From the sequence record PQ471516.1: a DNA stretch of 64,000 nucleotides; one strand, 5' to 3'. The stretch is from Escherichia phage Turkey5. Each line of letters opens with the position of its first letter. Position 1 is the first letter of the stretch. The position numbers and the translations under genes are program-made. This document shows positions 615-19,514 of this stretch, piece after piece. The notes beneath the pieces are model-generated. The model searched no databases, was not told where the DNA came from, and saw only the letters and a program-made list of their open reading frames with translations.

Positions 615-673
615 TTGCAAACTAAGTTTAACGGCGTATAATGTTTTACATCGAGAGCGGGAACACTTCCCGC
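615..673 (+). promoter_or_regulatory. early promoter + 5'UTR hairpin cassette
   Basis: TTGCAA 615, TATAAT 637, hairpin GCGGGAA-CAC-TTCCCGC 657-673. Confidence 0.8.
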
Positions 674-697
674 TACATATTACGAGAGATTAAAACG

Positions 698-1060
698 ATG
701 GCGACTCAAATCACTAAAATTATTGCTAACCTGGTTAACTTCCGCGACGAGATGAAAGATCTTCCGGCTGAAACGGTAAAAATTCACATCGCAGCTTATC
801 GGGAACTTATTGCAATGTTGCCGCTTAAGCGTGAACAATACGCCGCTACCGTGATGCTTGATGCGATGATCCATAAGATGATCGCCAGTGATTTGACGAT
901 GGTTTATCAGTACATGGGCGAAAAATTCTCGGTGTATAGTAAACCAGTACCAGGAATGGAAAGTACAGAAGTATTACACGGTTTAAATTTAAAACAAGAT
1001 GCATGGGATAATATGCCTCGTTTCCTGGTATGGGCTGACAGTGGCAAAATTTACGAATAA
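698..1060 (+). CDS. hypothetical early protein (120 aa)
   Basis: ATG 698 after GAGAG RBS; track start 641 lies inside promoter/hairpin. Confidence 0.75.
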   Translation: MATQITKIIANLVNFRDEMKDLPAETVKIHIAAYRELIAMLPLKREQYAATVMLDAMIHKMIASDLTMVYQYMGEKFSVYSKPVPGMESTEVLHGLNLKQDAWDNMPRFLVWADSGKIYE

Positions 1061-1074
1061 GTTTAATAAAGTAC

Positions 1075-1133
1075 TTGCATACTAAGTTAAAACAAGTATA
1101 ATACTTTCTATCAGGTGGGGAATAGTTCCCCAC
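1075..1133 (+). promoter_or_regulatory. early promoter + 5'UTR hairpin cassette
   Basis: TTGCAT 1075, TATAAT 1097, hairpin GTGGGGAATAGTTCCCCAC 1115-1133. Confidence 0.8.
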
Positions 1134-1154
1134 TATAATTAAGAGATTAATTTT

Positions 1155-1388
1155 ATGAGTACTATTTTAACTGTTTCTCAATCCGTTGCACTGACTGACC
1201 TATTAAACGCTTTAAGCCGTTGCACTGAGGTTGGCTTGTTTGATGTGGTTGACGTTGCACCGGACGTTATTAATCATTTTTGTGATGCGATGGAAGAATG
1301 TAAGGAAGATGATAGCCGTATGATGGCGGTCGCCTTTGAGGAAGTACAGCCAGGTGAGATCAAAGGTTTACCAGTACTGAAAAAATAG
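1155..1388 (+). CDS. hypothetical early protein (77 aa)
   Basis: ORF directly after cassette; 3' end runs into next promoter. Confidence 0.75.
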   Translation: MSTILTVSQSVALTDLLNALSRCTEVGLFDVVDVAPDVINHFCDAMEECKEDDSRMMAVAFEEVQPGEIKGLPVLKK

Positions 1389-1391
1389 TAC

Positions 1392-1450
1392 TTGCAAACT
1401 AAGTTTAAAAGCGTATAATACTTTACATCAGGTGGGGAATAGTTCCCCAC
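1392..1450 (+). promoter_or_regulatory. early promoter + 5'UTR hairpin cassette
   Basis: TTGCAA 1392, TATAAT 1414, hairpin 1432-1450. Confidence 0.8.
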
Positions 1451-1470
1451 TATATAAGAGGATTAAAAAA

Positions 1471-1710
1471 ATGGCTAAATCAAAAATGTTCTTAGGTCAC
1501 AAAAACAAAACTCATTGGAATGTAAGCCTTTGGATTAATAACGATGAGTCATTGTACCGGTTGGCCCAGGACTTTATTAACGATAGCACTAATCGCAATG
1601 ATGCGGCCCGTCATATGATGTTATTTTTAGAACAGACTGGACAAGATAAAACACCGGACGGATTCAAATATAGCACTACTGCGATCCGTGCTGCGATGGT
1701 TGGAATGTAA
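1471..1710 (+). CDS. hypothetical protein, paralog of 3871..4110
   Basis: ATG 1471 after AGAGGA; shares GHKNKTHWNVSLWINN...TPDGFKYSTTAIRAAMVGM with 3871..4110. Confidence 0.8.
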   Translation: MAKSKMFLGHKNKTHWNVSLWINNDESLYRLAQDFINDSTNRNDAARHMMLFLEQTGQDKTPDGFKYSTTAIRAAMVGM

Positions 1711-1795
1711 TAGAATTTATTTAAAGTACTATCATTTTTTGCGATAGTACTTTATAATAGTGTTTTATTCATACACCAACGATAAGGGTAACAGC

Positions 1796-2062
1796 ATGAA
1801 TATTAAGTATTTTGCGACGCGTGAACAAGCTCGGATCGCCGCACGCCAGGACGGGGCAACGTTTAAAGATATGGGAGCGGGATCGGCAAGTGGTAAACGT
1901 TGGGCCATTGTAAAGCGTAGTACCGCCAGATCATTACAGTACTGGCTATCTGCTTTAAAGCGTCCTGATAGTGTATCGCGTCGAGTGGTAGAAATAAAGC
2001 ACGACCGCAAGGGCAATCGCGTTACCGTGTACCGTACTAAAAAGATAGCAGTACTTGAATAA
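1796..2062 (+). CDS. hypothetical protein, paralog of 14703..15098
   Basis: ATG 1796 after AAGGG; shares FATREQARIAAR..GxTFKDMG..GKRWA..HDRKGNRVTVY. Confidence 0.75.
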   Translation: MNIKYFATREQARIAARQDGATFKDMGAGSASGKRWAIVKRSTARSLQYWLSALKRPDSVSRRVVEIKHDRKGNRVTVYRTKKIAVLE

Positions 2063-2069
2063 AAAGTAC

Positions 2070-2128
2070 TTGCAAACTAAGTTTAAAAGCGTATAATGTT
2101 TTACATCGAGAGCGGGAATAGTTCCCGC
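2070..2128 (+). promoter_or_regulatory. early promoter + 5'UTR hairpin cassette
   Basis: TTGCAA 2070, TATAAT 2092, hairpin GCGGGAATAGTTCCCGC 2112-2128. Confidence 0.8.
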
Positions 2129-2149
2129 CTATAACCAGGAGTAATAAAA

Positions 2150-2380
2150 ATGGCTAATATGTATATGACCGAAGTTAAAACCGTAAAAGATACTACCACT
2201 AATAAAACTACTTACTTACAGCGGATCTGTGGTGTATGGCAACGTATCAGCAAATCAAAGTACTTTAAATTAACATCATATGCAAACCGTTCGGATTCAT
2301 TCAGTACTGAAATAAAAGGTAATAAAGTACACCAATACGGCACTTATTATTATTACAGCCTGGACGCGATTGCAGTATAA
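2150..2380 (+). CDS. hypothetical early protein (76 aa)
   Basis: AGGAG RBS then ATG 2150. Confidence 0.75.
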   Translation: MANMYMTEVKTVKDTTTNKTTYLQRICGVWQRISKSKYFKLTSYANRSDSFSTEIKGNKVHQYGTYYYYSLDAIAV

Positions 2381-2410
2381 GCAGTTTACAAATCTTTACA
2401 ATTGCCGGTA

Positions 2411-2487
2411 TTGACTTATTTTGTCAGTACTGGCATAATGTATTCATTGGCAGATAAGCCGTAGCCCATAGGGTGCGGGAGTGTATC
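2411..2487 (+). ncRNA. candidate ORF-less mini transcription unit (CCCA-NN-GGGTGC core)
   Basis: TTGACT 2411-17-CATAAT 2434; core AGCCCATAGGGTGCGGGAGTGTATC 2463-2487. Confidence 0.4.
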
Positions 2488-2510
2488 TATAGAAAAAGTA
2501 GTTTATTACA

Positions 2511-18241: not shown

Positions 18242-18260
18242 AAGTTTTATTTCAGTACTA

Positions 18261-18289
18261 TTGACATAGCTTGATAGTACTGATGTAAT
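18261..18289 (+). promoter_or_regulatory. class-II early promoter (diverged copy)
   Basis: TTGACA 18261-17-TGTAAT 18284. Confidence 0.6.
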
Positions 18290-18317
18290 AACTTTACTAA
18301 CTACAAGGGGAAACATA

Positions 18318-18575
18318 ATGGAACAGTTCACACAATATCGGGTAAATCATCAAGCTATGGCCTACGTAGAAGACCATAAAACGTTACCAGTACTGCAACC
18401 AGTTAAAGGCCATATCTATCGTGCAATGTCGTGGTGTACGGCTCAGGATGGCTATAAAACCGTAGCCGTTGGTATGTATTGCGGTAATGGTGAATGGTTT
18501 GATCCAAATAATCCGGTAGCCATTGACAGTACTGAACAAATGAAATGGGCCGACTATATCGAGGATATCTCATAA
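18318..18575 (+). CDS. hypothetical protein (85 aa)
   Basis: AAGGGGA RBS. Confidence 0.8.
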   Translation: MEQFTQYRVNHQAMAYVEDHKTLPVLQPVKGHIYRAMSWCTAQDGYKTVAVGMYCGNGEWFDPNNPVAIDSTEQMKWADYIEDIS

Positions 18576-18581
18576 AACTAT

Positions 18582-18642
18582 TTGACAGTACTAACCAGTA
18601 ATGTATAATGTTTTACATAGAGCGGGGGAATAGTTCTCCCGC
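18582..18642 (+). promoter_or_regulatory. early promoter + 5'UTR hairpin cassette
   Basis: TTGACA 18582, TGTATAAT, hairpin 18622-18642. Confidence 0.8.
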
Positions 18643-18664
18643 CAATAGTTTGGAGTAAAACATT

Positions 18665-18865
18665 ATGTCTATCGCTATCGCCCTGGTTGAAGTACTGAAA
18701 GAAGCTAAAGCCAACCTTATCGATGTACAGATTAAGGAATTGCAAAACGGCTTAATCGGCTGTACTTGTACCGCTGGTGGAGCGGCAGACTATCGAGAAC
18801 ACGAATCACTCGAATCACTGGTTCGGTATCTTACCATGATCGTTGATGATTGGAGAATCATCTAA
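18665..18865 (+). CDS. hypothetical protein (66 aa)
   Basis: GGAG RBS; contains Chi at 18773. Confidence 0.75.
   Translation: MSIAIALVEVLKEAKANLIDVQIKELQNGLIGCTCTAGGAADYREHESLESLVRYLTMIVDDWRII
18773..18780 (+). other. Chi site GCTGGTGG
   Basis: exact octamer, in CDS. Confidence 0.9.
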
Positions 18866-18882
18866 CAAAAAAGAATAAAAAA

Positions 18883-18909
18883 AGGGATTGACTCAGGTCA
18901 GTCCCTTTG
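18883..18909 (+). terminator. hairpin terminator overlapping a -35
   Basis: AGGGATTGAC-TCAG-GTCAGTCCCT + TTT. Confidence 0.6.
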
Positions 18910-18960
18910 CTATTATATACGCATAGACAAAAACTAGCCCACAGGGTGCATAAGTGTATC
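18888..18960 (+). ncRNA. candidate ORF-less mini transcription unit (CCCA-NN-GGGTGC core)
   Basis: TTGACT 18888-17-TATTAT 18911; core TAGCCCACAGGGTGCATAAGTGTATC 18935-18960. Confidence 0.4.
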
Positions 18961-18995
18961 CAAAATATATAGTTAATAACGGTGAGTAACTATCT

Positions 18996-19003
18996 GCTGG
19001 TGG
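18996..19003 (+). other. Chi site GCTGGTGG
   Basis: exact octamer, intergenic. Confidence 0.9.
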
Positions 19004-19029
19004 AGTGAAAACTATTAATAAAAAAAAGT

Positions 19030-19058
19030 ATTGACAAAGTATATCAGTACTGCAATAA
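19030..19058 (+). promoter_or_regulatory. promoter
   Basis: TTGACA 19030-17-AATAAT 19053. Confidence 0.55.
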
Positions 19059-19112
19059 TGTATCTCGTAGGGCGGCAATGGTGCGACGGCCCACAAAGTT
19101 AGGAGATTCAAA

Positions 19113-19445
19113 ATGACTACTTCAATCGCTATCGTTAAAGCTTTCATCCGTACTAATGTTTCCTCTGTATTCATCGACGGCCTCGACCGTAACGTAGAAT
19201 ACTCAATCATTATCGCACAAACGGCAAACGGTTCTCGGTACATCCTTAATGATAGTGAAGCAAATCACTACTACTTCACTAAAGCCACTGGCTTTAAACG
19301 CATCGATGCTGATGTAGTATACGCTAAGATGAATAAGCTGGTAGACAAGATTAACGCGAAAGGTACTATCGATTTACAGTACTGGACCGAAACCGATCCA
19401 GAATATGGATCTCACCGCTACCTGAATCCGGGTATTAAAATGTAA
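19113..19445 (+). CDS. hypothetical protein (110 aa)
   Basis: AGGAGA RBS; minus ORF 18893..19243 rejected. Confidence 0.8.
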   Translation: MTTSIAIVKAFIRTNVSSVFIDGLDRNVEYSIIIAQTANGSRYILNDSEANHYYFTKATGFKRIDADVVYAKMNKLVDKINAKGTIDLQYWTETDPEYGSHRYLNPGIKM

Positions 19446-19452
19446 AAAGTAC

Positions 19453-19514
19453 TTGCATAGTACTTAGATTCATGTATAATGTTTTACATAGAGAGGGGGA
19501 AATGGTTCTCCCTC
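19453..19514 (+). promoter_or_regulatory. early promoter + 5'UTR hairpin cassette
   Basis: TTGCAT 19453, TGTATAAT, hairpin ~19493-19514. Confidence 0.75.

Follow-up and report, generated by a model that had tools for sequence, protein, structure and literature searches.

Why does the early region of a coliphage repeat one small promoter-and-hairpin unit before nearly every gene, and what does the hairpin do? The question is raised by the first 20 kb of a 64,000-nucleotide (nt) stretch of Escherichia phage Turkey5 (record PQ471516.1), referred to here as the window, in which sigma-70-like promoters are followed by a short stem-loop whose stem sequence varies from copy to copy. The closest described kind is the promoter-early stem-loop (PeSL) cassette of the T4-like phages RB49/phi1, T4/PST, and KVP40/nt-1 (Arbiol et al. 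2010, PMC2839356; Comeau et al. 2014, PMC4122927). The cassettes of the window are PeSL-like, in a new phage group and with a new hairpin position. The first-pass annotation of this DNA had stated that no equivalent was described, which these publications of 2010 and 2014 contradict. On balance, though narrowly, it is probable that the units belong to the PeSL kind, as portable cassettes for the expression of early genes in an Asteriusvirus-like terminal repeat, with the hairpin serving as a structured 5' end.

Architecture of the cassettes

Regular-expression and hairpin scans locate 28 cassette-type hairpins, in which a run of G is followed by a run of C, all on the plus strand between positions 656 and 19514 (Table 1). 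All but one lie behind promoters of the form TTGCAA/TTGCAT/TTGACA-16-TATAAT, the exception being the promoter-less hairpin at 4130-4149. A covariance model built from 32 distinct hairpins (gapless alignment, 3-nt loops) and applied with filters off to all 64 kb recovers 28 of 28, between 654 and 19515, and gives one weak match outside 1-20 kb (60782, minus strand, E 0.34); the hairpin scan finds no hairpin of the cassette type from 20 to 64 kb. The earlier count of about 28 promoter-plus-hairpin cassettes in the first 20 kb thus stands as 28 hairpins, 27 of them with a promoter. The copy without a promoter at 4130 is confirmed as well, and every stem variant listed at that time (GCGGGAA, GTGGGGA, GGGAGAA, GAGGGGA, and GGGAAA) is found.

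The promoter search detects 38 near-consensus sigma-70 promoters on the plus strand between 615 and 19480 and only scattered, weaker ones past 20 kb. Counted over 1-20300, the plus-strand promoter matches number 39 and show an A tract upstream, as does the strong promoter with AT-rich upstream sequence of the PeSLs. A hairpin of at least 6 bp that starts 9 to 17 nt past the -10 hexamer follows 27 of these 39 matches, compared to a mean of 3.2 and a maximum of 9 in 500 shuffles of the downstream segments and to 11-12% of random 45-mers. About 12 early promoters of the region, approximately one-third, have no hairpin. Promoter plus hairpin, as first described, holds for the 27 cassettes and not for these promoters. 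The motif 'TGTATAAT' given for the promoters is no canonical extended -10, with the scan marking TG as absent before the -10 hexamer in this promoter class.

The first paired base of the hairpin lies 8 to 15 nt past the -10 (median, 12), the median free energy is -11.8 kcal/mol, and the end of the hairpin precedes the AUG by a median of 20 nt. The stretch from the Shine-Dalgarno sequence to the AUG shows a mean unpaired probability of 0.71 in predicted foldings. Stem polarity is strict, with the G-rich arm always first; G·U pairs are present, and the composition of these stable stem-loops is the same as that of the RB49 PeSL stems when read directly. The loops comprise at least 13 different sequences of 3 to 5 nt, so the loop, earlier described as conserved, is not really so. 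The start context TTTACAT is conserved, as is CATCRAG upstream of the hairpin. With the transcription start site (TSS) predicted at the A of the conserved CAT, position 8 past the -10, 1 to 8 unpaired nt (median, 5) separate it from the hairpin. Provided that this predicted TSS is right, the hairpin would be transcribed (about +2 to +30) and lie inside its own leader; the earlier placement of the hairpin in the transcribed leader stands on the same proviso.

Selection for pairing on the sense strand

What selection maintains in the hairpin is the pairing of the sense (RNA-like) strand, and no particular sequence. Across 107 distinct promoter-proximal segments from the window and six relatives, all folded and with minimum free energies of -7 or lower, the stems contain 62 G·U or U·G wobbles versus 0 A·C mismatches. 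An A·C mismatch on one strand corresponds to a wobble pair on the opposite strand. Cassettes anchored on their downstream genes and compared between the window and four close relatives show 16 distinct stem changes: the pair is preserved through a wobble in 11 and by double compensatory changes in 2, hence in 13 of 16, and is lost in the other 3. The substitution frequency in orthologous cassettes is 2.0% in the stems, compared to 7.0% in the loops and 5.7% in the initial transcribed sequence. The wobble asymmetry and the pair-keeping changes between orthologues identify the folding strand as the sense strand, which therefore indicates RNA.

Covariation among the copies was determined with 32 distinct hairpins from 7 sequences in a gapless alignment. 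Changes on both sides occur at 7 of 9 pairs, and 49 such cells are counted, compared to 13.3 in shuffles, none of which (0 of 500) reaches 49. Sliding the 3' partner by 1 to 3 columns leads to far lower covariation scores. A plain MAFFT alignment of the 28 leaders leaves the 5' arms out of register; the pair counts are taken from the gapless alignment of hairpins with 3-nt loops, and the covariance-model alignment, which mixes sense and antisense matches, was kept out of the covariation analysis. The initial proposal that covariation reflects selection on RNA structure is borne out by the wobble counts, the orthologue changes, and the surpassed shuffles.

Gene turnover at the cassettes

Single genes have been gained, lost, or exchanged among related phages with the cassettes as junctions. 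When the window is chained colinearly with vB_Ec-M-J, G17, CRJP21, and 121Q, a window gene between two cassettes repeatedly has a lone cassette as its counterpart in the relative, with the flanking matches overlapping by 43 to 80 nt on that cassette. Clean cassette-bounded differences concern gene 1155-1388 (missing from G17, CRJP21, and 121Q, where one cassette is left), gene 3512-3778 (missing from vB_Ec-M-J; the flanking matches share 77 nt on one cassette), gene 5221-5457 (missing from 121Q), gene 8959-9105 (missing from CRJP21 and 121Q, with 72 to 74 nt shared), and the gene after 17667 that follows cassette 25 and extends to 17949 (missing from 121Q). Additional genes of the relatives sit at cassette edges, for example, at window position 12511; G17 and CRJP21 contain one of 349 nt at the upstream edge of cassette 18. 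Among the ends of matched blocks, 51 of 114 fall inside cassettes versus 14.7% expected, clustered at the upstream edge and just past the hairpin.

At the 4130 locus, a single promoter and a single hairpin precede, in G17, the orthologue of the gene that begins at 4169 in the window, where the order is promoter, hairpin at 3833, gene 3871-4110, and hairpin at 4130. The promoter-less hairpin is explained by this comparison as one of the two hairpin copies that flank the inserted gene 3871-4110. Genes and cassettes reassort even across genera, since Phapecoctavirus nepoznato has a homologue of gene 1471-1710 (87% nucleotide identity) behind a different hairpin variant.

A promoter family without a hairpin (TATTGACATAGTTTGATAGTACTGGCATAAT) is found at 7315-7343, 7607-7635, 10449-10477, and 18262-18290. 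Gene 7375-7587 lies between its copies at 7315 and 7607; G17 lacks this gene, and the overlap there is 77 nt. Repeated promoters that lack a hairpin thus mediate gains and losses of genes, too.

Location in the direct terminal repeat

Megablast of positions 1-21000 matches solely Asteriusvirus jumbo coliphages (121Q, PBECO4, G17, fEgEco12, vB_Ec-M-J, CRJP21, and others), with identities of 90 to 96% and a patchy coverage of 23 to 72%. By these matches the region is a portion, ~20 kb long, of the direct terminal repeat (DTR) of an Asteriusvirus, that is, of a 121Q/PBECO4-like, Rak2-like jumbo phage. The cassette array lies wholly inside this repeat, since the counterpart in vB_Ec-M-J is annotated 'Direct Terminal Repeats' (1-21525), window position 1 aligns with about position 1049 of that annotated repeat, many megablast matches to relatives stop at 20231-20234, and DTRs of ~21 kb are described for Asteriusvirus (PMC13070987). 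This location of the whole array was missing from the first-pass annotation. All cassettes of the main family sit in the repeat, which, like the regions that house PeSLs, is hypervariable and rich in small genes of unknown function; Pfam detects only a DksA/TraR zinc finger and a GNAT acetyltransferase, with a kinase match below threshold.

Paralogous gene pairs can be read directly from the sequence of the terminal repeat (1471-1710 and 3871-4110, 1797-2062 and 14694-15098, and 7677-8000 and 14280-14603), the N-terminal motif FATREQARI being common to 1797-2062 and 14694-15098. Such pairs are consistent with duplication through cassette-mediated recombination. A perfect 80-bp tandem duplication at 20194-20353 (2.0 copies, 100% identity) spans 20231-20234, the inner boundary of the terminal repeat where the matches of the relatives end; it may be genuine or may have arisen in assembly at the edge of the repeat.

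Distribution in other phages

BLAST with a single cassette matches 78 phage records. They include Asteriusvirus, the Klebsiella RaK2/K64-1/Muenster group, Salmonella 7t3/Munch, fENko-Kae01, Eneladusvirus, and CBB and also coliphages of ~140 to 150 kb such as Phapecoctavirus nepoznato. Klebsiella phage Muenster shows the same promoter, start context, and hairpin position with the stems GGGAATGAA-tga-TTCATTCCC, GGGGATACA-tag-TGTATCCCC, and GGAGATTCCA-gaataa-TGGAATCTCC, and fENko-Kae01 has a hairpin of different sequence at the same position. P. nepoznato contains GGCGGCA-atgg-TGCCGCC plus copies identical to GGGGAGAA-tag-TTCTCCCC of the window, and cassettes are thereby common to Asteriusvirus and an unrelated genus. 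In Serratia phage BF, the promoter and start context are retained, but the hairpin is rare (about 2 promoters, both with other stems). Conserved across genera are the position, the small loop size, the stability, and the purine-first polarity; stem and loop sequences are not conserved. No description of the cassettes was found in the literature on 121Q, PBECO4, RaK2, phAPEC6, fEgEco12, CBB, PA5oct, and Asteriusvirus.

A degenerate cassette of the window at 19031-19100 consists of TTGACA...CAATAAT followed by GGCGGCA-atgg-TGCGACGGCC, with the same 5' arm and loop as the P. nepoznato hairpins.

Relation to known promoter and leader elements

PeSLs combine a strong sigma-70-like promoter with a G-then-C stem-loop, occur in hyperplastic regions, and mediate modular shuffling and the formation of minicircles (PMC2839356, PMC4122927). 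The cassettes of the window share with them the near-consensus sigma-70 early promoter with its AT-rich upstream tract; the adjoining stem-loop, which is stable, contains G·T pairs, and has its G run before its C run; the Shine-Dalgarno sequence and start codon at the 3' end; the dense packing among small, functionally uncharacterized genes of a hypervariable region; and the insertions, deletions, and replacements between close relatives that are bounded by cassettes. The RB49 PeSLs, read directly, have the form TTGAC-AGGGGATCACGTATCCCCT-ATACT, where the hairpin fills the spacer (-23 to -5, counted from the end of the -10). Situated between the -35 and -10 elements, it is seen by read-through RNA only, which fits a terminator or attenuator. 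In contrast to this hairpin outside its own transcript, that of the main family in the window is by prediction transcribed, starts 8 to 15 nt past the -10, and has no U tract. The stem-loop before the TSS is thus not found in the main family, which sets it apart from PeSLs proper. A further difference is the location of the array in the DTR of a Rak2-like jumbo phage. BLAST with a single cassette detects no sequence homology to RB49.

A short GC-rich hairpin near the 5' end of the primary transcript, as predicted for the cassettes, with an open ribosome-binding site after it is also found in the stabilizing leaders of ompA and papA, which are cited in PMC3997798 (refs 92-95) and serve as precedents. 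In contrast to leaders of the ompA type, the element of the window is repeated 27 times within a mobile module, and its predicted unpaired leader of 1 to 8 nt is longer than the protective limit. The leader hairpin of T7 gene 10, GGGAGACCACAACGGUUUCCC, is a stabilizing precedent with the same two features; it runs GGGAGA...UUUCCC, with the same polarity as the hairpins of the window and a similar 3' arm.

The nut site (boxA-boxB) of lambda and the put site of HK022 likewise place a small promoter-proximal RNA hairpin after a short conserved single-stranded motif. However, the cassettes have neither the conserved loop nor the boxA consensus of these sites, a copy stands before nearly every gene rather than once per operon, there are few terminators to override, and no N-like partner was identified.

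Proposed function and alternative explanations

The most likely role of the hairpin would be to stabilize or insulate the 5' end of each early mRNA, with a module prone to recombination as its carrier. Here, the A-rich upstream tract and the near-consensus sigma-70 promoter would be read by the host RNA polymerase, as the consensus suggests. The start context TTTACAT is followed, ~1 to 8 nt from the predicted 5' end, by the RNA hairpin of 6 to 9 bp and then by an open, A-rich Shine-Dalgarno region ~20 nt ahead of the AUG. All early mRNAs would thereby receive the same stable 5' end, whether started at their own promoter or cut from read-through RNA. This structured end may slow 5'-end-dependent decay and keep the ribosome-binding site clear of upstream or foreign sequence, and a newly captured gene would be reliably expressed at once. 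Protection of the 5' end, among the roles suggested at first, is still plausible. The conserved unit of ~90 bp would in turn provide the homology for modular shuffling. The range of PeSL-type mobile regulatory cassettes comes in this way to include, besides T4-like phages, Phapecoctavirus and the terminal repeats of Rak2-like jumbo phages, and promoter-plus-leader modules may therefore be a general means for large virulent phages to take up and express accessory early genes. As compact, very strong, and naturally insulated expression units, the cassettes could also serve engineering.

Several points weigh against a stabilizing and insulating role and against the evidence offered for it. The literature searched on this phage group contains no TSS, half-life, or expression data. 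The median of 5 unpaired nt (up to 8) in the predicted leader exceeds the limit for classical 5'-end protection. The hairpin is dispensable, because ~12 early promoters do without it and because it is rare in Eneladusvirus, which retains the promoter and start context and seldom the hairpin. A purely structural role leaves the strict polarity, with purines prevailing in the 5' arm and pyrimidines in the 3' arm, unexplained. The cassette copies are paralogues and orthologues rather than independent samples. The covariation set was selected by a hairpin finder, which makes its percentage of paired cells circular and inflated; the wobble and orthologue tests escape this circularity. Cassettes occupy most of the intergenic space, and selection for intact genes also puts breakpoints there. 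A gene difference (7361-7577) is also delimited by the hairpin-free promoter repeats at 7315 and 7607; for recombination, homology thus suffices by itself.

The original reading of the PeSLs, in which the hairpin is a read-through attenuator or terminator that damps transcription from upstream promoters and leaves each gene mainly self-driven, is unlikely for the window. It draws on the RB49 PeSL211/210 stem-loop, which lowered lacZ expression about as much as a strong terminator does (PMC2839356), on the PeSL-like composition of the stems, on the scarcity of true terminators between the 39 promoters, and on the T-rich tail of the promoter-less copy at 4130. However, the terminator scan shows that tail in this hairpin only, the other 27 of 28 having no T tract, and a hairpin downstream of its own start would stop its own transcripts too, whereas the hairpin of RB49 is outside the transcript. 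Real T-run terminators lie close by at 5859, 6574, and 15123, the last of which had been called a true terminator from its T6 and is confirmed as such by the scan. Intrinsic terminators share with the cassettes the GC-rich hairpin, and the stem at 15123 is a related one, but the 27 hairpins without a U tract stand at the start of transcription units. An intrinsic terminator is ruled out by the missing T tract, as the first reading of these hairpins had already held. Cleavage by RNase III is ruled out by stems of 6 to 9 bp, which are too short, and a target of the T4 RegB type by the absence of GGAG from many stems. Equally unlikely is a 5' tag on host-polymerase early transcripts whose shape and G-first polarity are read by a dedicated trans-acting factor and which has spread with the marked genes between the unrelated coliphage genera Asteriusvirus, Alcyoneusvirus, and Phapecoctavirus. 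Candidates for the factor would be a nuclease or RNA-binding protein of the phage, by which early shut-off is timed, and a host factor put to use by the phage. Rather more doubtful is a common RNA tag through which a trans-acting phage or host RNA-binding protein, nuclease, or boxB-like antiterminator coordinates all early messages. The uniform position and orientation, the strict polarity, the CATCRAG conserved upstream, and the NGG-type loops frequent in Asteriusvirus, with the ATGG loop again in Phapecoctavirus, speak for such a tag. They are opposed by the diversity of the loops, the entirely different stems and loops of Muenster and BF, the absence of a boxA consensus, the many early genes without a hairpin, and an Rfam scan of 1-21000 (E up to 1) that gave three chance-level matches, none on the cassettes. 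The boxB-like or loop-specific protein site suggested at first is unlikely, as stems and loops vary freely within and between genera.

An element acting at the DNA level, whether it binds a dimeric repressor as its operator or, in the form of a cruciform or hairpin, promotes recombination or template switching, is improbable. Some copies are near-perfect palindromes right after the start site, a typical roadblock position, the crossovers of RB49 map to the stem-loop (PMC2839356), and a crossover between the window and G17 lies at the hairpin. The stems are nevertheless too diverse for a single DNA-binding specificity, the wobble asymmetry shows that pairing is kept on one strand only, which speaks against cruciforms and symmetric operators, and hairpin-free repeats recombine too. 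Stem diversity and wobble asymmetry rule out the operator and the cruciform as such. With the hairpin placed in the transcript and selection confined to one strand, this system is suited to the open PeSL question of whether the stem-loops act as RNA or as DNA. It is very improbable that the hairpin has no function and was carried along as a passenger when the promoter module was duplicated. The copies are plainly paralogues, a hairpin is absent from many working promoters, and the hairpin is rare in Eneladusvirus, but pair-preserving substitutions prevail, stems change less than loops, and unrelated stems stand at the same position in other genera.

Coordinates of the features

Table 1. Predicted features of the window, with positions counted from its first nucleotide
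Feature	Coordinates	Strand	Description	Basis
DTR portion	1..20353	+	Early region, ~60 small rightward genes	Megablast + vB_Ec-M-J annotation
Cassette 1	615..674	+	-35 615-620, -10 637-642, hairpin 656-674 (AGCGGGAA-cac-TTCCCGCT), gene from 698	Scans + covariance model
Cassette 2	1075..1134	+	Hairpin 1114-1134 (GGTGGGGAA-tag-TTCCCCACT), gene 1155-1388	Scans + covariance model
Cassette 3	1392..1451	+	Hairpin 1431-1451, gene 1471-1710	Scans + covariance model
Cassette 4	2070..2128	+	Hairpin 2112-2128 (GCGGGAA-tag-TTCCCGC)	Scans + covariance model
Cassette 5	3431..3491	+	Hairpin 3471-3491, gene 3512-3778	Scans + covariance model
Cassette 6	3793..3853	+	Hairpin 3833-3853 (with a G·U pair), gene 3871-4110	Scans + covariance model
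Promoter-less hairpin	4130..4149	+	T-rich tail; right-hand copy beside inserted gene 3871-4110	Hairpin + terminator scans, G17 comparison
Cassette 8	4678..4737	+	Hairpin 4718-4737 (AGGGAGAA-atgg-TTCTCCCT)	Scans + covariance model
Cassette 9	5146..5201	+	Hairpin 5182-5201, gene 5221-5457	Scans + covariance model
Cassette 10	5463..5521	+	Hairpin 5506-5521, weakest (free energy -5.5), C·C mismatch in outer stem	Scans + folding
Cassette 11	6755..6816	+	-35 TTGCAC, hairpin 6795-6816, two G·U pairs	Scan + covariance model
Cassette 12	7074..7134	+	Hairpin 7114-7134	Scans + covariance model
Cassette 13	8880..8939	+	Hairpin 8920-8939, gene 8959-9105	Scans + covariance model
Cassette 14	9109..9167	+	Hairpin 9150-9167	Scans + covariance model
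Cassette 15	9700..9759	+	Hairpin 9741-9759 (AGGGGAAA-cgg-TTTCCCCT)	Scans + covariance model
Cassette 16	10135..10194	+	Hairpin 10175-10194	Scans + covariance model
Cassette 17	12248..12305	+	17-nt spacer, -10 TATAGT, hairpin 12287-12305	Scans + covariance model
Cassette 18	12520..12579	+	-35 TGGACA, hairpin 12560-12579	Scan + covariance model
Cassette 19	12817..12875	+	Hairpin 12857-12875	Scans + covariance model
Cassette 20	13566..13624	+	Hairpin 13606-13624	Scans + covariance model
Cassette 21	13925..13986	+	Hairpin 13967-13986	Scans + covariance model
Cassette 22	14196..14256	+	Hairpin 14238-14256	Scans + covariance model
Cassette 23	16748..16808	+	Hairpin 16789-16808, with a G·U pair	Scans + covariance model
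Cassette 24	17055..17113	+	Hairpin 17095-17113	Scans + covariance model
Cassette 25	17606..17667	+	Hairpin 17646-17667, with a G·U pair; next gene ends 17949	Scans + covariance model
Cassette 26	17942..17998	+	Hairpin 17980-17998 (GGGGGAG-atatc-CTCCCCC)	Scans + covariance model
Cassette 27	18582..18642	+	Hairpin 18622-18642, with a G·U pair	Scans + covariance model
Cassette 28	19453..19514	+	Hairpin 19493-19514, with a G·U pair	Scans + covariance model
Terminator	15123..15149	+	Related stem GGCGGGA/TCCCGCC, then T6	Terminator scan
Second cassette type	9571-9606, 13314-13349, 16619-16654, 18881-18916	+	Classical PeSL geometry	Terminator scan
CCCAYNGGGTGC unit	2411-2490, 9578-9660, 11242-11320, 13321-13400, 16626-16705, 18888-18965	+		
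CCCAYNGGGTGC unit	334-250, 2583-2505, 5112-5035, ~120-40	-		

Other repeats and signals of the window

The second cassette type contains a terminator-like hairpin of 12 bp, AAAGGGATTGAC-tccg-GTCAGTCCCTTT, whose stem includes the -35 of a TTGACT-17-TG-TATTAT promoter. It alone shows the PeSL feature of a stem-loop before the transcription start, and its orthologues in G17 are annotated as ARNold terminators. Another repeated unit, present on both strands, consists of a promoter TTGACA/TTGACT-17-CATAAT/TATTAT followed after ~25 to 30 nt by the motif CCCAYNGGGTGC. The units at 2411 (plus) and 2583 (minus) are convergent and overlap, and the motif also stands after promoters in Serratia phage BF (2814, 10209, 11680, and 14613). 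Folding of the copies gives no consistent structure; the units may be small RNAs or protein-binding sites.

The palindrome AGTACT occurs at 275 sites in the whole window versus 20 expected (standard deviation, 4.4), for example, at 27, 610, 1070, 23217, and 41270. It is found in genes and promoters; in the latter it adjoins the -35 (AGTAC-TTGCAA) and is frequent within the spacer (CAGTACTGTATAAT). The 13-fold excess suggests a signal at the DNA level, such as a binding or modification site.

Three promoter-driven leaders of ~85 to 100 nt (2658-2747, 5958-6060, and 13478-13565) have a cassette-like 5' hairpin with an enlarged loop and are closed by a long-range helix, AUCAGG...CCUGAU; two of them directly precede another promoter. 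Small RNAs and structured leaders are both possible identities, with little covariation among the three copies. The initial transcribed sequence CATCAAGACGA(G/A) past the -10 is common to an RB49 PeSL (117165) and the hairpin-free promoters of the window at 11270, 7343, and, on the minus strand, 5084, which may be due to chance or to a common start context.

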